From IMG/VR virus record IMGVR_UViG_3300005253_000045, positions 11,629-75,628 of that record: a stretch of DNA of 64,000 bases; one strand, 5' to 3'. Origin of the DNA: a virus. This document shows, one piece after another, positions 5,452-50,302 of this stretch. A program made the translations under genes and the position numbers. Each line of letters starts with the position of its first letter. Position 1 is the stretch's first letter. The notes beneath the pieces are model-generated. The model saw only the letters and a list, made by a program, of their open reading frames with translations, did not search any database and had not been told where the DNA came from.

Positions 5452-8400
5452 TGGCCACCTACCGCGTAGCAGTGGTCAATGAGCAAAAAAGACCCATTGC
5501 CGGCGTGGTGGTCGAGGCCGTATCCCTCAACAACTGGCCTGACGTCACCACTACTGCGGAGACCGGGCGCAATGGTACCGTACAATTCACGGGCATCAGC
5601 GGCCCTCACTGGTTCCGCCCCCGTACTCGACGCACCTCCACCGCAGTAGGTGGTCGGGTCTACACTGGTGCAGTGGAAGTACAGGTCGTAAACTCAGGGG
5701 GAGAGAAGGTGTGCGTTGACTTCGTTGTTGACTGCGATGGTATGGGCACGCACACCACCCTTGCCGCGGCCATCGCTCAGGCTATCACCGACCAAGCTAA
5801 TCGCGTCATCTTCCTCTGCTGTAGTGTCACAGAGTCCGACATCGAAATCGGTGGGCTGGCTGGCGGCCAGAGCATTACCATTATCTCGCATCAGAACCGC
5901 CGCGCCATCATCACTACTAACTCCGACGAGGATATGTTCAAGCAGACGTCTAATGGCGGAGGGTCGCCTGACGGCGGACTGTTCCTCAAGGATATTGGGC
6001 TGACGATAACTACAGCAGGCTACGCCGTATTCCTGTGCGACACTGGCACAGAGATAACGAATATCTCGGCGGAGCGTGTAGACTTCAATGGCGGTTACTT
6101 TGTACGGAACGATTCTGCCCAAGACGCGATGGGCAACCTGGACATTCGGATTGTTGAGTGTATAGGGGGGCTAACAGGCTTCTACCAAAACGAGGGCTCC
6201 ACCCCCCCTAACGACCTTTACGCCCTCGACAACGATATGACACTGACGCACTGGTGGAAGGAACTGTCTGCCGGCGCAGAAGGGGCAGAGACCAACGCTG
6301 CAAACAGCTCCAATGTGGTTGGGGGGAGCTATACCGTCTCAGAGTGGATGACGATTGCGCTCTCTGGGAACTTCAATAGGTGGGCATTCAAGGACTTCAT
6401 CCTAACCAGTGGCTGCTCGGGTGCACACTTCCGCCACAGTGCCACGGATACCAATCACCGCGGGGTACACTACTCCGACATCCTGTTCATCGCTACAGCG
6501 AATGACACCGACTTTGGTGACTTCCAGGGGCCGGCCGCCAATCCGCAGGATAACCTATACATTGTAGGTATCCATGGGGTTGCGCAATCGGGCGTGACTC
6601 CGAGTGGTACATTCCTCGCAGTAGATACAGACCAAACAAACCCCTATGTCGCGGACATCTGGGCGCCCGCATGGCCTACCGTCTACAGTGGCCCCACCAT
6701 CACGCCCGCAGTACCTCCTGTTATAGACCACGACGACCTAGCCAATGTTACAAGTGACCAGCACCACGCACTGAGCCATGATATTCTCTCCACCGACCAC
6801 CCCGACACCCTCGCGGCATCTGTTGTACGGGGCGACCTCCTATTAACCAACGCAACACCAGTGCTAGCACGGCTACCGATTGGCGCAGCATCCACCTATC
6901 TGAAGTCAGACGCTACCGACGCTGCATGGGCCGCTATCCAGGCCGCAGATGTCGGACTGCCTATCATCGGTACTCCTACTTATGATAGCGTAGAAGGCCT
7001 GAACACCGTCTTCCACTCTGCTGGCTGGATTAGTCCTGGTGGGGTAATTTCTGATGCTGGGGGGGCGACAATCAATGTCACTGCCGGTGATGGGATGCTC
7101 CGTTCCTCAGATAGCCCAGTGGCTCAACTTAAGTTCATTGAGTGGCCAGCATCGAACGGTCTGGCCATCACCGCAGATAGCATCCGCTACATCGGAGTAG
7201 AACTCAACGACCCTAATGACCCACAGGTCGTCGTCCGCACGACCAACAACTTCAACAACAACACCGACTTCATACTCGGCACAGTAGTCAATGACGGAGG
7301 CGTGCTACACGTCCAGAACGCACCGTGGGAGGTTGGCGACCATGCCAACTTTATGATTCAGCGGACGCGCGGGACGGCTCCCATCGCCCGCGACAAAGAG
7401 GTCGGCGGCATTATCTTTTCGGAGAGTGGCACGCGACGAGTAGTTGTCAGTGCGGGCCAACTTTGGAGGGGGCTGACGGCCTTCGTCATAGGTGCCCTTG
7501 ATACCGACCCTGGCGGCGCTGCCGACACCTTCGATGAATACTCATCACAAGGCAAGGAAAATACCGGCATCGCTCAGTGGCCAAACACGCTCTATGACAA
7601 CGGTTCGGGTGGAACCGGCTCGTTGCAAACGATGGGAAACAACAAGTGGGCGAACCTCTGGTGGTACATCGAACTGGACACCGAGCTGGTCATGGTCTAC
7701 GGGACAGCTCAGTATAACACCCGGACCGAGGCTGAGAACGAAGACATTCCTAGTACCTTGCCGGACAGATTGCAGGTGCATGGCATTCTGGCTGCGAGAT
7801 TCATCTTCCAGAAGTCTGCGGCTACGGCGGCGGAGATACTGAGCGCCTTCGATACCCCCTTCACGCCGAGCGGAGTGACGCTCCACGCCGACTTGGGCAC
7901 TGTTACGTCCGGCCAGCACCACACTCAGGCTCATAAGGACGAGCATGACCCCGAAGACGGAGCTGACGCCCTAGACACGGCCAACGCCGCAGAGATTAGT
8001 GTGGTTGTCGCTGCCGGTACAGGCTCGTCTCACTCCCTTGCCCGCGCAGACCACGTTCACGCCATCGTCCACGCTATCACAGACAACCATATCGTCACCA
8101 TCGACGGTGGTGGCGCGGGTGCTCCTGCCAGTGGGGAGTATGCGAAGTGGACAGCTAGTGGGTTGGAAGGAAAGAGTGCCGCTGAAGTAGCAGGCGACAT
8201 CGAGGGGAGTATTGACCACGGTTCTATTGGCGGTCTTGGAGATGATGATCATACGCAGTATGCTCTACTTGCGGGGCGGACTGGTGGTCAGATTATTTAC
8301 GGCGGAGAAAATGCTAGTGCATTCTTGGTTCTTCGCTCTACTAGTCATGGGACAAAGGGCGACATTGCACTTCAACAGGCCACTATCATTACCTTGACGG

Positions 8401-27553: not shown

Positions 27554-28563
27554 TAGGAAGCCTCCTCTAAGTGACGCTGCACCTCTGCCTTTACCTTTGG
27601 CTCGAGGTCTCCGAGCTCCGCCAGCAGCTCGGGTATGGACATCTGGTCTGCGCGTATACCCTGGCCCAGGAGCTCGACGAAGTTGCTTATCTCATCTGCA
27701 TCCACGCCCTCTAGCTCCACAGTGTCGTCGGGGCTACGCCGGCCGAACACTTCAAGGGCGGGGAGGACATCGGGAAGAGGTACCTCCTCAACCGACACCC
27801 CATCCTTGTCCACACCTACTAACAAAACCTCTATGGTTCGGGCGTAGCTGGCCAGGTCTCGGCGTGTGCGGGCCACACTGCCAGGGTTGGCGAAGACGGT
27901 AGTACCCACCTGCACCACGCCCAGAGACTCGTGGATATGCCCAGATACCAGCAAATTGTAGTCCTCGAGGCCCGGTATCTGGCTGACGTCAACAGTGGGG
28001 TACTGGCGGCTATCGCCTGGTGCTACAAGGGAGCCGTGGGCCAGGCCAATGACCGGGGCCTTCTGCCCGCGTATCTTTTCGTGCTCCTCCTCAGTGAGGG
28101 CGTAGTAGGAGGGGTCAGTCACACCGGTGTGGACGCCTTCGGCAACAGCGTTGTAAGGCCGCGGGACAATCCAGAACTCAGGGTTACCGTCCTTCACCCC
28201 AAAGCCCTTCATCTCCATCAACAGTTCGATAGCCCCTGCCTTCTCCAGGGTTCCCAGAGGTTGCCGTGGGAGACTATCGATACCCTCGGGGCCGTAGTCA
28301 TGGTTCCCTGGAACGACATAGACGGGGCAGGGGAAAGCCTTGAAGGCGCCGATGAGCCGTTGCACGAGACCATGGCTGACCCTATTGGGCTGCTTTACGT
28401 GGTAGATGTCACCTGTAAAGAAGGCATGTTCGACCTTGTGCTTCTTGCAGAGCGCGGTGATACTCTCTAGCTTACCCAGCATGGTCTCCATGTAGTCATC
28501 TACCCGACCGCTAGGGGCCTTGTCTGCAATGTGCAGGTCACCTGCAAAGAGGAGGTTCATCAC
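27553..28563 (-). CDS. sbcD: SbcD/Mre11 nuclease
   Basis: GDLH, GD, PGNHD, AHG, GHIH, NPGS. Confidence 0.9.
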   Translation of the reverse strand: MMNLLFAGDLHIADKAPSGRVDDYMETMLGKLESITALCKKHKVEHAFFTGDIYHVKQPNRVSHGLVQRLIGAFKAFPCPVYVVPGNHDYGPEGIDSLPRQPLGTLEKAGAIELLMEMKGFGVKDGNPEFWIVPRPYNAVAEGVHTGVTDPSYYALTEEEHEKIRGQKAPVIGLAHGSLVAPGDSRQYPTVDVSQIPGLEDYNLLVSGHIHESLGVVQVGTTVFANPGSVARTRRDLASYARTIEVLLVGVDKDGVSVEEVPLPDVLPALEVFGRRSPDDTVELEGVDADEISNFVELLGQGIRADQMSIPELLAELGDLEPKVKAEVQRHLEEAS

Positions 28564-38673: not shown

Positions 38674-40104
38674 TCATGGGCAAACCTCCTCAAACTCGAC
38701 CTGACTACAAGTGTAGGCCGGCTGACTACTGTACGTTTTCAGTCGCTTCTTAGAGTGTCCCTCCAGGTACTTCCCTCTATCCATAAAGTCGAAGCAGAAA
38801 AGTCTCTCCTTACCCTCTGACAGCCTCATGCCTCTCCCGACTCTCTGAACAGTGAGGTGCGGGGCCTTACCTCCCCCCGCCATAATCAAGAAGGTTAGGG
38901 GCGGTATGTCAAGCCCTTCGTCGGCTATCTTGCTGATTACGAGGAGGTTCAGCTTTCCGGCTCGTACGTCATCGTACGCCTGCTGCCGCACTTTGGTTGA
39001 CTGCTTCCCCGCGATGAATGGGCAGTCCAGCATCTTCGCCAGCTTCGTCCCGTGCTCCAGGCGTTCCACGAGGATGGCGACGGCGCCGCTCCTACTCTCG
39101 TTCAGGCGCCGGGCGAGGTCAACGATGTAGCTGTTGCGTACTGTGTTGCTAATGATACCATATTCGACGGCTTCCGGCCACTTCTTCCAGCTTATCCGGT
39201 TCTTTGGCATTGCTATCATGAAGACATCAACAGCCACTAGATGGCCTTGCTCGGCGAGCTCATCGGCTCCAACGTGGTGGATTGTGGGGCCGAGCCAGGA
39301 GCAGACTTTGAAGAATGTCTCAAGGTCTTCCTCCTTATACGGGGTCGCGCTGTAGCCGTAGCGCCATTTTGCAGACCAAAGGTTGGCCATCACCCGCTCG
39401 TAGCTCTTGGCGGGGAGGTGATGGGCCTCGTCAACGTGTACCTGCCCTATCTCCTCGCGTAGCCAGGTCTCGATGCCCTCTTTCCCCTTGAGGCGGCGGT
39501 AGAGGGTCTGGAAAGTGGCGACGGTGAGGACGCGGGGTTCCCACTTGCCGTCACCAATGACGCCTATGACGTCCTGTTTATCGAAGTCCTCTAGGCCGCG
39601 GCCTAAGCCTAGTGTTTTGATAGCACGGTCGGCTGTTTGAGTCATGAGGTCTTTCCGGTGTACCAGTATCAACCCCGGCAGACCAATGCGCCGCGCTAGT
39701 TCTAAGAGGACTTCCGTTTTGCCTGCCGCCGTTGGGTGCCATACCACGCCCCGCTCTCCCTGTTCCGCCTTTTCTATGGCCTCCGTCTGGTGTTGGCGGA
39801 ACACTGTGCTGTTGTGGAGCCCGGCGAGACGGAAGTCCACGGTGGGAGCGGCCGGCCGCTCTTCTACCACCTCAACGTCGATTCCCTCCGCGTGGAGACG
39901 TGCGGCTAGCCAGGGAGTGAGGCCGGCGGCGAATCGGCCGCTCGGCGACATAATTTTTACCCAGCCGTCCCAGCCCCCGCGCTTGTATGCCCGCGTAAAA
40001 ATGTATCCCTTCTGTCGATACGACAAGAGGGTACGGGCCTGATAGATATTTGGCCCCTCGAACCGGGCGTGAGTGTTGGTGACTGTGATGATGTTATGCG
40101 CCAC
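38674..40104 (-). CDS. SF2 DNA helicase (UvsW-like)
   Basis: PTAAGKT, DEAH, SATP, EGLDIP, QRVGRGMR. Confidence 0.93.
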   Translation of the reverse strand: MAHNIITVTNTHARFEGPNIYQARTLLSYRQKGYIFTRAYKRGGWDGWVKIMSPSGRFAAGLTPWLAARLHAEGIDVEVVEERPAAPTVDFRLAGLHNSTVFRQHQTEAIEKAEQGERGVVWHPTAAGKTEVLLELARRIGLPGLILVHRKDLMTQTADRAIKTLGLGRGLEDFDKQDVIGVIGDGKWEPRVLTVATFQTLYRRLKGKEGIETWLREEIGQVHVDEAHHLPAKSYERVMANLWSAKWRYGYSATPYKEEDLETFFKVCSWLGPTIHHVGADELAEQGHLVAVDVFMIAMPKNRISWKKWPEAVEYGIISNTVRNSYIVDLARRLNESRSGAVAILVERLEHGTKLAKMLDCPFIAGKQSTKVRQQAYDDVRAGKLNLLVISKIADEGLDIPPLTFLIMAGGGKAPHLTVQRVGRGMRLSEGKERLFCFDFMDRGKYLEGHSKKRLKTYSSQPAYTCSQVEFEEVCP

Positions 40105-41237
40105 TACCGCCCGCCTAATCCTATCGCTGCTCTTGTATGGCCCTTCGCTCCAGTGAATCCTTCTGCTGCTGCGTAGAGTTCTGCTAACGTGTACGCCTTT
40201 GTCGCTGTGCCTTCTACTTTATGCTCTGTGAACCAGGCTTGGGCCTCCTCGGTGGTGAGCGGTTTGAACTCTACCTCGGCGGCGCAGCGTCCCGGTCTAC
40301 CCACTGCGGGGTGGAGCTTGCCCAGCGGTTCGTTCGTGGTCACGAGGGCTATGACCCTCATCCCCTGGCCAATCATTCCATCGGACAGATTGAGGAATCG
40401 GGATAGGGCCTGCCCCTCTCTTTGGCGGGCGTCCTCCGCCAGTAGCTCACCCGCATCCTCTAGTATTAGTAGCCGCCACTTACCTTGTTCGGCGTTTGGG
40501 TGCGGAGAAGCGCGAGGTCTCGTAATGGCCGAGTCTCCGTTGTTCTCGCCCATGACTACACCCATCATGTAGGCGGCCGAACCGAAGAAAGCCTCAGGGT
40601 CAACAATATATTCGGTATTGCACCAGTGTCGCCAGGAGTATGCGAGTGCTCTCAGCGCAAAGGTCTTTCCTGTCCCTGGAGGGCCATGCCATAGTACAAG
40701 CCGCCCTCCGTGCGCGGGTTGAAACTGGGCCATTAGTTCGGTTAGAGGGGCAGCGGCTAGCTGTGAGTAGTTGCCACTGATGTCTTCCCAGTCAGGGACA
40801 TCAATACGTCTTGATTGCTCAAGTGCCCCGCTGGGGCCAAGCATCCAGAAGCGAATCTGAATTGTCTTATCGTCCTTCGGGGTAGCGACTGGAAAGAGCT
40901 GTCTAACCTCATTGACGAAGTGTAGATGGGGAGTAGCGGCCAGGTCGGGGAAGGCTGTAACTACTGAAACTCCCGACCTTTCTACCATCACAAGGCCAAT
41001 CCCCCCGTCGTCAAGAGTAAGGAATAATGTACCCCTCTGCATGTCCTGGTAGATGACCTTGCCTCTCCCCCCGTCGAGCTTGATGAGTTTTTCCAGCGGA
41101 GACCCAAGGTCGATAGTCCAGTTGGTGGATTGAAGGTAGGGTTTGTTCTGCGCAAGTGCCTCGTTGGTAAATAAGTTCCATGGAAGGGCACTTACACTTG
41201 TTGAGGCCAGGTCGATTGTTGTGTCAATGGCCTTCAT
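40104..41237 (-). CDS. AAA+ ATPase
   Basis: GPPGTGKT, LILED, TTN, RPGR. Confidence 0.88.
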   Translation of the reverse strand: MKAIDTTIDLASTSVSALPWNLFTNEALAQNKPYLQSTNWTIDLGSPLEKLIKLDGGRGKVIYQDMQRGTLFLTLDDGGIGLVMVERSGVSVVTAFPDLAATPHLHFVNEVRQLFPVATPKDDKTIQIRFWMLGPSGALEQSRRIDVPDWEDISGNYSQLAAAPLTELMAQFQPAHGGRLVLWHGPPGTGKTFALRALAYSWRHWCNTEYIVDPEAFFGSAAYMMGVVMGENNGDSAITRPRASPHPNAEQGKWRLLILEDAGELLAEDARQREGQALSRFLNLSDGMIGQGMRVIALVTTNEPLGKLHPAVGRPGRCAAEVEFKPLTTEEAQAWFTEHKVEGTATKAYTLAELYAAAEGFTGAKGHTRAAIGLGGR

Positions 41238-41429: not shown

Positions 41430-41577
41430 TCATGGTCTCGCGCCTGTTGCCTCTCAACGTGGGCCTCCCGCAGGAGAACTCACCCGCGTCAGTGGCGTGT
41501 ACACATTACTCCTCATACCCCACCTACCTGGGAGCACTTGCTACGAGGTAGGGAGAGGCACAGGCGTGAACCCATGA
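41430..41577 (-). ncRNA. Putative structured RNA following the mini-tmRNA
   Basis: About 25-bp closing stem 41430-41455/41553-41577 plus inner hairpins. Confidence 0.45.
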
Positions 41578-41659
41578 TGGTGGAGGTGGCCAGTGTCGAA
41601 CTGGCGTCCGGCCGGCCGCGCCTTAGCGCGTTATCCAACCGTCGAGCCCTCTCACCCCC
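41578..41659 (-). ncRNA. ssrA: Mini-tmRNA (tRNA-like domain only)
   Basis: GGGGGUG/CACCUCC-ACCA acceptor with G3:U70, stemless D-loop ending UCGAC, helix GGUUGG/CCGGCC, GGAC linker, T-arm GCCAG-UUCGACA-CUGGC; TATAAT at 41665-41670. Confidence 0.85.
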
Positions 41660-42600
41660 ATACTATTATAACGTATTATCGACGCGAGCGTTTCACCTTG
41701 TTACTCCGCGCCTTGCGCCGGCGCCAGCACTTGTCTGCTCCGGTCAGGCAGAGCCATACGTTGTCTCTCCCATAGTAACGGCACGCCCGCTCCATCCGGC
41801 AGGTAGCGCACCGCTGTAACTGGTCTATGGGCTCTTCGTTTAGGCCGTCGTTGCACTCATCCATGACAGCACTTACCCGTAGGGTTGAGCATTTCACGCT
41901 TCGCTATCGCGTTCTTTGGTATCTTCTGACGCCACGCCCGGCGACCTTCTACCACCATCTCTAGACCCTCGGTTAGCAGCCACAGACGCGGCGGGTTTCC
42001 AATAGTTATTGCCCCGAACTGCCATAGCCAGGGGGGTGTCGCGTAGACGGTCATGTCCCCACGTTCGTCAGAGGCGAGAAGGGCGGTCTCCCCGTCGTAT
42101 AGTGTGTACTTCATTCTGATACCTCCTCAAAGTTGCGGCAGGTTGGGCAGGGCGTACCATACGGCCCTGTGTCCAGACCCATGACTCTATCACAGGCGAG
42201 GACGCTAGTCCATGTACAAGGCAGCCTGCCTTGTGCTCGGCGGGCGCACCTCTCGCAGTATGCTTGTGTTCCCTTCTCATCCATGAGTATAGCCTCTCCG
42301 GGGCACAGGCGCATGGAGCATCCGCCGCGGCCGGCCTTCGACTCCGCAGTGAAGACTCGATGATTGAACGCCTTTAGTACCACCTTGCGGCGCGGCGGGG
42401 TACTGAGAGCCGTGCAGCGAAAGAGGTGGTACATCGGGGCGGTCGGGCAGTATCCCCCGTAGACGATGCGCCCGGTTCCCCGTTCGTGATTGTGAATGAT
42501 GCCAGACGGTCGGTTGTTAAGCTGGCGGTCTCCGCGTAGAGCCCGACGTCGTATGTCCTGCGGTATCGGCCCCATCATGGTGCTCCACTGCCTCGGCATG

Positions 42601-43272: not shown

Positions 43273-43620
43273 CTATCCCCGCCGTATCAGGTAAGTCGTA
43301 CCGTCGAACTCGACGGAAGTGTAGTCCCTTTGTACGTCTTTGGCCCACCGCTCCCAGTCTATGTAGGATTCCATTTGACTGCCGGGGTCAACATATCCTA
43401 CGTCATAGGCGAAGTCTCGGGCATAGTCCTCGAACTCCTCCTCTGGGATGAGTGTCCTGTCTCCGTGGACGCTGTCTAGGTCGCCGCCTAGGTCAGTAGT
43501 GAGAAGCTTGAGTGCGGCCCAGCGCAAGCTATCCTCTTCGTCAAGTCCCCCATTGGACTCGGCGAGGTCGTTGAGCTCGTCTAGTTCTTGGGCAAGGTCG
43601 TCTAGGTCTAGGTACTCCAT
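43273..43620 (-). CDS. ArdA-like acidic antirestriction protein
   Basis: Very acidic; EDYARDF..SYIDWERWAKD resembles the ArdA C-terminus. Confidence 0.6.
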   Translation of the reverse strand: MEYLDLDDLAQELDELNDLAESNGGLDEEDSLRWAALKLLTTDLGGDLDSVHGDRTLIPEEEFEDYARDFAYDVGYVDPGSQMESYIDWERWAKDVQRDYTSVEFDGTTYLIRRG

Positions 43621-49837: not shown

Positions 49838-50302
49838 ACGGAGCGTTGCCGTGTGGCGAGTCTGACGTCCCGCTCTCTGTGTCCCTCTCTATTTATTTAC
49901 CGAGTGAGCCTCACGAGGTTGCTACCCGTTGCCCCTCTGTCCGCCTCTGCTAGTGCGTTGTCCGTGCGTGCTAGCTGCGCGGGGGCCGTAGTCACCAACC
50001 CCTGTCCGGTATGCTCCTGGCCGGCCATACGGGCCGCTATGCCCTGCCGGCCATTGGAGTGCTGTGTCTTGGCCTATCTCATCAGATACGGGCGGCCATT
50101 CCCGTATGACTACCGCCATAGTTTCGACTGTGCTAGGCGTATCTGCTCTTAGCTTCCGTGCTAACACCTAACCAACATCGGGTACATACCCATACGATAC
50201 CGTTGTACCGTTCAATCTTGCTTCCGCACTCCCCGCACGGGCTTTCGGCGTGTCGCCATGCATATACTCGTGTCATTGTCGCTACTCCTCCTCTCGCCTC
50301 TA

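Follow-up and report, generated by a model that had tools for sequence, protein, structure and literature searches.

A phage-encoded tmRNA consisting only of the tRNA-like domain, from a marine-sediment metagenome

The gene and its genomic surroundings

We analyzed a 64,000-nt stretch of phage DNA (the window), which comprises bases 11629–75628 of IMG/VR record IMGVR_UViG_3300005253_000045. Minus-strand positions 41659..41578 of the window hold an 82-nt gene, whose RNA has its 5′ end at 41659 and its 3′ end at 41578. Comparison with RNA models and with related sequences confirmed, at the level of sequence, that this is a genuine phage gene, whose product is a tmRNA cut down to the tRNA-like domain (TLD). 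The Rfam covariance model for tmRNA, RF00023, aligned to the 82-nt RNA over model positions 1–374 with a score of 53 bits (E = 5e-18), above its gathering score of 47, and a search of the whole genome with RF00023 matched the same place. The original prediction had put a mini-tmRNA at 41578–41659; the coordinates proved exact, and we add that the gene lies on the minus strand.

All parts of the RNA are given here in window coordinates on the minus strand. The 5′ strand of the acceptor stem, GGGGGUG (41653..41659, with G3 at 41657), pairs with CACCUCC at 41582–41588. The latter strand carries U70 at 41586 and is followed by the discriminator A73 and an encoded CCA (41578..41588 in all); these 3′ elements and the G3:U70 pair were read directly in the sequence. 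Next to the 5′ acceptor strand is a stemless D-loop, AGAGGGC, that ends in the tmRNA signature UCGAC (41641..41652) and was aligned to the consensus GGaUUCGAC; nearly every one of 75 family members that we compared has the GG of this loop. The predicted fold of 41610..41640 consists of helix 2a (GGUUGG/CCGGCC, 6 bp), a bulge AUAA and the hairpin CGCGC-UAAG-GCGCG, with a single G read between the hairpin and the 3′ strand CCGGCC of helix 2a. A second tmRNA signature, the GGAC linker that partners UCGAC, follows at 41606..41609 and aligned to the GGAC of the Rfam consensus. The RF00023 alignment then places the T-arm, GCCAG-UUCGACA-CUGGC, at 41589..41605. The RNA is therefore a complete TLD with a 7-bp acceptor stem, G3:U70, A73, 3′ CCA, UCGAC, GGAC, helix 2a and a UUCGA T-loop, and every one of the TLD details that had been predicted (G3:U70, A73, CCA, stemless D-loop, UCGAC, GGAC and T-arm) could be read in the sequence. 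A thermodynamic fold of the 82-nt RNA gave helices identical to those of the model alignment.

What is missing from this RNA is the other half of a tmRNA. In the RF00023 alignment only 15 nt stand for 306 central model positions, which hold the tag message and the pseudoknots, and the stem-loop at 41610..41640 takes their place. This alignment with its middle deleted bears out the earlier claim that the hairpin CGCGC-UAAG-GCGCG had replaced the tag ORF and pseudoknots. Neither the alignment nor ARAGORN revealed an mRNA-like domain (a resume codon and a tag frame with its stop) within the 82 nt, and pseudoknots PK1–PK4 are absent because the UCGAC-to-GGAC interval is only 31 nt long and folds as one stem-loop. 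Either the tmRNA model or ARAGORN had been proposed as a check of the gene; the model was positive at 53 bits, whereas ARAGORN called no tRNA, no tmRNA and no tag peptide in the window. The RF00005 tRNA model had no match in the whole genome at E ≤ 0.01, and a cloverleaf was thus not found. We rejected a two-piece permuted tmRNA, as the two halves stand in standard order and the RF04321 model scored 19.2 bits against a cut-off of 47. We also considered a ‘one-codon message’, as 51 of 76 family members have a UAA, UGA or UAG close to the 5′ bulge that follows helix 2a. This idea was rejected because the triplet lies within a general A-rich motif, is missing in many members, and sits in a 31-nt stem-loop that is too short to extend to the decoding site.

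The complete phage record is 75,628 bp long, has direct terminal repeats and is estimated to be 100% complete. The mini-tmRNA gene points the same way as a long block of minus-strand genes. Upstream of it are small ORFs without family matches and a gene for an ArdA-like anti-restriction protein (43273–43620, minus strand; PF07275 at 31.4 bits against a cut-off of 27; phrog_2059), which is transcribed in the same direction about 1.6 kb away. Downstream are genes for an AAA ATPase (40104–41237, minus strand), an SF2 helicase (38674–40104, minus strand), a DnaB-like helicase and DNA polymerase. A 136-aa ORF that covers the mini-tmRNA on the opposite strand had no family match. Elsewhere in the early region of small genes, we observed a full-model match to a type II hammerhead ribozyme (50068–50129, minus strand; RF02276, 39 bits with the gathering threshold at 37, E = 2e-4).

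Evidence for a promoter of the mini-tmRNA is only suggestive. The TATAAT that was predicted 5 nt upstream of G1 is indeed present at 41670–41665, with a poor −35 element, and the promoter scan did not list it. The sole site listed by that scan was GTAACA-18-GATAAT at 41704–41675, and the number of sigma-70-like sites in the region (one found versus 0.7 expected from shuffles) was not above chance. A scan of the region for terminators found none. Immediately after the CCA begins a structured segment of about 148 nt (41430..41577, minus strand), in which a long stem closes off a multibranched center. Its minimum free energy was −79.7 kcal/mol (z = −3.92), and none of 200 shuffled sequences was as stable. 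No Rfam family matched this segment, which may be an element for processing or for RNase III, or else a leader for the downstream genes, and whose assignment to the mini-tmRNA feature is tentative.

Profile searches of the genome found no SmpB, no tyrosine or serine recombinase (no match to PF00589 or PF00239), and no RF-1/ArfB domain, peptidyl-tRNA hydrolase (Pth) or CCA-adding enzyme. The phage looks lytic. Its DNA was present in three DNA sequencing runs, all of which belonged to one marine-sediment metagenome study, and no RNA run was listed as containing it. A megablast search of the region against cultured phages returned nothing, and the DNA polymerase and terminase were only ~24% identical to those of any cultured phage. 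Because the phage has no close cultured relative, no host was assigned. When the neighboring ATPase was used as a query, no relatives were found in IMG/VR, and the helicase query gave remote matches only. The ATPase query also led to three metagenome contigs, and the upstream region was available only in one of them, L262, whose ATPase was 45% identical; the ~900 nt available upstream of that ATPase gene contained no tmRNA-like match. On the same contig, a tRNA-like gene lies downstream of the ATPase/helicase block (5523–5589; RF00005 at 33 bits, anticodon loop CUCCUAA).

TLD-only genes in viral and bacterial genomes

The mini-tmRNA is, by its sequence features, a tmRNA of the ‘TLD only’ type of phage DS6A, a kind that has already been published. 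An entry for ‘Mycobacterium phage DS6A (TLD only)’ is given by Hudson, Lau and Williams (2014; PMC4131195), and a 2025 paper on the tmRNA database sets DS6A beside mitochondrial and plastid tmRNAs that have no CDS (PMC11915505). DS6A was one of two precedents named in the original prediction, and the listing in PMC4131195 bears this out; for the other, the jakobid mitochondria, PMC11915505 cites Jacob (2004) for tmRNAs that have lost the mRNA-like region. We located the DS6A gene at 28478–28560 of JN698994, between gp33 and the gene for DNA polymerase III (tmRNA Website tmID 11587). Both RNAs are phage-encoded, ~82–83 nt long and complete as TLDs with G3:U70 and A73. They share a helix 2a of 5–6 bp whose cap consists of a small hairpin and, on the 5′ side, an A-rich bulge; they have no tag frame and no pseudoknots, and in both phages the gene lies just upstream of replication genes. 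The DS6A RNA differs in that it ends in CUA, so that CCA is not encoded, and in having GCAC instead of GGAC, whereas the window RNA has CCA and GGAC. The phages differ as well: DS6A is a temperate actinophage of the Mycobacterium tuberculosis complex that integrates at a tRNA-Lys gene and not at ssrA, whereas the phage studied here looks lytic, comes from marine sediment, and has no detectable DNA similarity to any cultured phage.

Comparison with the standard one-piece tmRNA (SsrA, RF00023), of which full-length phage copies occur in Bxz1-like phages, Wildcat, phage G and GodonK, showed that the TLD features are all shared. The partners of the mini-tmRNA are presumably those of the standard molecule: alanyl-tRNA synthetase (AlaRS), SmpB and EF-Tu. 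In contrast, the window RNA has no resume codon, tag ORF or PK1–PK4, and measures 82 nt versus ~350–450 nt. The mRNA half of trans-translation therefore lies beyond its reach. The jakobid mitochondrial tmRNA (RF02544) and the CDS-less plastid tmRNAs of Mallomonadaceae (~65 bp) have likewise lost the mRNA-like region, and these organellar molecules are thought still to act with SmpB (PMC11915505). In them, tag-free rescue has a natural precedent. However, they are not viral, and RF02544 had no match to the window RNA at E ≤ 1; we therefore rejected a mitochondrial tmRNA and regard the window RNA as an independent reduction.

To survey the form we used a strict sequence pattern: UCGAC 12–42 nt before GGAC, then a T-loop, then CUCCACCA. 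The short interval excluded full-size tmRNAs. The pattern fixes UCGAC, GGAC, UUCGA and CUCCACCA, so that conservation of those motifs was imposed on the family. A TLD was counted as complete if it had a perfect 7-bp acceptor stem that started with GGGG at the right distance, and acceptor pairing was thus a selection criterion for membership. Among the 121 matches listed for IMG/VR, 107 were complete TLDs, 64–89 nt long, with 74 distinct sequences. A sub-pattern gave 17 loci, nine of which were among the first 120 matches listed, from which we estimated ~225 strict-pattern matches in IMG/VR in total, ~200 of them TLD-only. The strict pattern undercounts the family, since the DS6A gene with its CUA end and GCAC falls outside it.

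The same pattern was applied to bacterial and archaeal genomes, represented by one genome per species (185,579 species). Among the 121 matches listed, only one was TLD-only, and 111 others extended to full-length tmRNAs of 346–448 nt. We therefore take the TLD-only form, as judged by this pattern, to be a viral speciality that is nearly missing from bacterial genomes. The sole TLD-only match (L185, 1497–1576; CAYTWF010000178.1) lies on a 1.6-kb contig of a Butyrivibrio MAG and scored 86 bits with the family model R1 described below; the contig probably derives from a phage and was placed in the MAG by binning. The TLDs nearest to the window RNA among the 111 sampled bacterial tmRNAs belonged to two Acidimicrobiales MAGs, with 30 of 38 nt identical in the 3′ part. 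We rejected Acidimicrobiales as the host on this ground, as the match is too weak and the sample of tmRNAs too biased.

Almost no proteins were common to the carriers and this phage. When three other environmental mini-tmRNAs were compared with cultured phages by blastn, no matches were obtained. SmpB and full-length tmRNA were each absent from all 50 carrier records that we searched, and an integrase was found in only 2 of 12 near-complete carriers. A co-oriented tRNA gene lay within 500 nt in 18 of 74 family members, often 2–15 nt away, a placement that fits expression in the manner of a tRNA. A shared −10 box stood in front of only 12 of 75 members and so does not characterize the family. 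Between UCGAC and GGAC, three layouts occur. In the long one (26–31 nt), which includes the window RNA and DS6A, helix 2a is followed by an A-rich 5′ bulge and a 3–5-bp hairpin; in the short one (12–16 nt), a tetraloop closes helix 2a; and the third has a 12-nt AACAUUAAUUUA-like loop.

Literature searches found no survey or paper on a TLD-only phage family beyond the mentions of DS6A, and ARAGORN-based surveys of phage tmRNAs would miss the form. Annotation by ARAGORN misses TLD-only genes, whereas in 49 of 50 carrier records RF00023 detected the mini form with a score that exceeded the cut-off. The ‘tmRNA’ calls that ARAGORN made over two family members (L006 and L041) were rejected as spurious, as their supposed tag frames cross the mini-tmRNA itself. 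Four related large carrier contigs had a second RF00023 match of ~76 nt and 27–33 bits a few kb from the mini-tmRNA (G023:C1:11049-11124, G037:C1:67400-67475, G033:C1:76553-76628 and G027:C1:173379-173455); they may represent tRNA-Ala genes, or else an additional mini form that has diverged further.

An unannotated stretch between tRNA-Val and tRNA-Thr of Gordonia phage GodonK (MK620899, ~76522–76586; 1496–1560 of locus L002) has 30 of 33 nt in common with the T-arm and 3′ acceptor strand of the window RNA, and Phendrix (locus L264) has a counterpart. The stretch can be drawn as a circularly permuted TLD, with the T-arm, CACCUGC-ACCA, GUGGGUG, a D-like hairpin and a UUCGAG/CUCGAG closure. We rejected this candidate: the GodonK fold was no more stable than shuffles (z = −0.24), R1 gave only 27 bits with broken acceptor pairs, and Phendrix has AUCA in place of ACCA. 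GodonK also has a full-length tmRNA at 84631–85159 (90 bits).

Selection on structure and alanine identity

We built a covariance model, R1, from 13 environmental family members, with the window RNA and DS6A left out. Both of these nevertheless matched over the full model, with 65.1 bits (E = 2e-13) for the window RNA and 61.8 bits for that of DS6A. Direct counts, made free of any alignment, showed that the five positions of the T-stem were paired in all 75 distinct sequences and that all four Watson-Crick types occurred. By the same counts, positions 1–6 of helix 2a were paired in 75/75, 74/75, 71/75, 68/75, 63/74 and 55/72 sequences. In a set of 71 distinct sequences the five T-stem pairs were likewise always formed, with all four Watson-Crick types. 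Compensatory changes were seen in helix 2a, where 92.4% of cells were paired across these 71 sequences, and acceptor pairs 5–7 covaried across the family.

In a model-based alignment of 72 sequences, 97.5% of cells in pairs were paired, versus 66.8% in shuffles, and double (compensatory) changes occurred in 14 of 18 pairs. The covariation score was 0.782 versus 0.160 in shuffles, none of 500 shuffles reached 0.782, and slid controls gave ~0.1; these values are to be read with the caveat that the alignment was fitted to model R1 and that acceptor pairing and the fixed motifs were preselected. We concluded that the sequence comparison shows the TLD-only structure to be under purifying selection.

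The positions that specify alanine were examined by control scans of 2.9 million viral contigs, in which the strict TLD-only pattern was kept and one identity position was made degenerate. Only positions 70 and 73 were tested in this way separately from the imposed pattern. A residue other than U at position 70 gave no matches, and a residue other than A at position 73 gave one locus, versus ~225 matches with U70 and A73. The single locus was rejected as a family member because it had no acceptor or T-stem pairing and looked like coding sequence; it is a chance match. Since the degenerate scans gave only zero matches and one chance match, the TLD match lies far beyond chance. Taken across the scanned contigs, this comparison shows that intact TLD-only genes keep their AlaRS identity elements, which are under purifying selection, despite repeated turnover of the stems. 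The invariance of U70 and A73 argues that charging matters, and speaks more for a role on the ribosome than for passive capture of SmpB.

Possible functions and their meaning

Trans-translation is the main bacterial ribosome-rescue pathway, and to our knowledge the dealings of phages with it are poorly understood. The explanation that we favor, with a probability of roughly 0.55, is that the mini-tmRNA is charged and competes with host tmRNA for SmpB and for stalled ribosomes, while adding no tag. The RNA would be transcribed within the early/replication operon and trimmed by tRNA-processing enzymes of the host, and host AlaRS would charge it with alanine. Once bound by host SmpB and EF-Tu, it would compete with host tmRNA for the empty A site of ribosomes that have stalled; after delivery there, it could take the nascent chain onto its alanine. 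As the RNA has no resume codon or tag frame, no ssrA degradation tag would be added, and SmpB and stalled ribosomes would be diverted from the host pathway that tags and destroys. The resulting complex might be resolved tag-free through drop-off and Pth, with the help of alternative release factors, or in further rounds, and the ribosome could also come to a dead end after transfer to the tag-less TLD. Such a mechanism would depend on partners from the host, since SmpB and full-length tmRNA were missing from the carriers, and ArfB, Pth and a CCA-adding enzyme from this phage. Peptidyl transfer to a TLD-only tmRNA has been obtained in vitro, according to a citation of Shimizu and Ueda (2006) in PMC3895274.

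The main rival is that the RNA acts as a passive sponge, which would only titrate host SmpB and shut down trans-translation with no need for charging or ribosome entry. It holds this rank because the sole experimental result on inhibition was independent of chargeability. In E. coli, as PMC4131195 and PMC11915505 summarize the work of Mao (2009), DS6A or a similar TLD-only molecule strongly inhibits endogenous tmRNA whether or not it can be charged; PMC4131195 adds that the inhibition perhaps occurs via titration of SmpB. Titration would be enough for such an effect, and no carrier phage that we searched brings its own SmpB. However, a sponge would tolerate loss of the alanine identity, whereas U70 and A73 were invariant in a family whose stems are saturated with compensatory changes, and CCA is encoded in this phage. 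We therefore consider the sponge unlikely, though an alternative to be taken seriously.

It is possible, though we doubt it to much the same degree, that the mini-tmRNA is a working RNA of lytic phages for tag-free rescue (or for alanine tailing). It would then work with host SmpB to free ribosomes that had stalled on degraded mRNA of the host or on mRNA cleaved by RNA-targeting defence systems, and its products would be spared proteolysis; the ~148-nt RNA would be processed along with it as a partner, or would serve its maturation. If this were true, the mini-tmRNA would be the minimal natural RNA able to engage SmpB on the ribosome. The original prediction had offered either an SmpB decoy or a tag-free rescue factor that counters defences cleaving mRNA or tRNA; nothing in the analysis tied the RNA to such defences.

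We think it improbable that the resemblance to tmRNA serves another use, as a bait or antagonist for defence proteins with SmpB-like domains or as a sink for AlaRS or EF-Tu. CoCoNuT defence systems of types II and III-A carry SmpB-like OB folds that are predicted to bind tmRNA-like RNA (PMC11090510), and the ArdA-like gene places anti-restriction in the same early region, but the proposal is purely speculative and no such defence system is known for this phage. A role as tRNA-like punctuation is about equally improbable. Here RNase P and 3′ processing would cut the minus-strand transcript between early and replication genes and free an RNA without function, which would suit the position of the gene between two blocks of a co-directional operon, the lack of a detected terminator and the very stable structure directly after the CCA. 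Any tRNA-like shape would suffice for this purpose, yet UCGAC/GGAC, the stemless D-loop, G3:U70 and A73 are all kept, and the same RNA recurs in unrelated phages and in many contexts.

Lastly, the sequence evidence effectively excludes a host ssrA remnant without selected function, either an attP core or a fragment acquired through imprecise excision: many temperate phages do integrate into ssrA and carry its 3′ end, but att cores carry the 3′ part only, whereas both TLD halves are present here with a neat hairpin linking them, terminal repeats are found in the genome but no tyrosine or serine recombinase, integrases are scarce among the carriers, DS6A integrates elsewhere, the nearest sampled bacterial tmRNA is only 30/38 nt identical in its 3′ part, and the strong covariation of the family shows purifying selection. 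The original prediction had named identity with a host ssrA 3′ end, as a mere attP remnant, as the outcome that would overturn it; the two joined halves, the missing integrase and the near absence of the form from bacterial genomes speak against that outcome.

The kind of RNA described here is known but experimentally almost unexplored, and this instance adds little beyond DS6A. The retained alanine identity leads to a testable prediction, which sets a charged competitor acting on the ribosome against a passive SmpB sponge. Judged from its sequence, an 82-nt natural RNA that keeps the features for alanylation and for binding SmpB and EF-Tu, and nothing else, would offer a compact handle on how phages deal with trans-translation. 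As some 200 copies match the strict pattern in IMG/VR and bacterial genomes have hardly any, the TLD-only tmRNA appears to be a recurrent phage strategy and not an oddity of DS6A.
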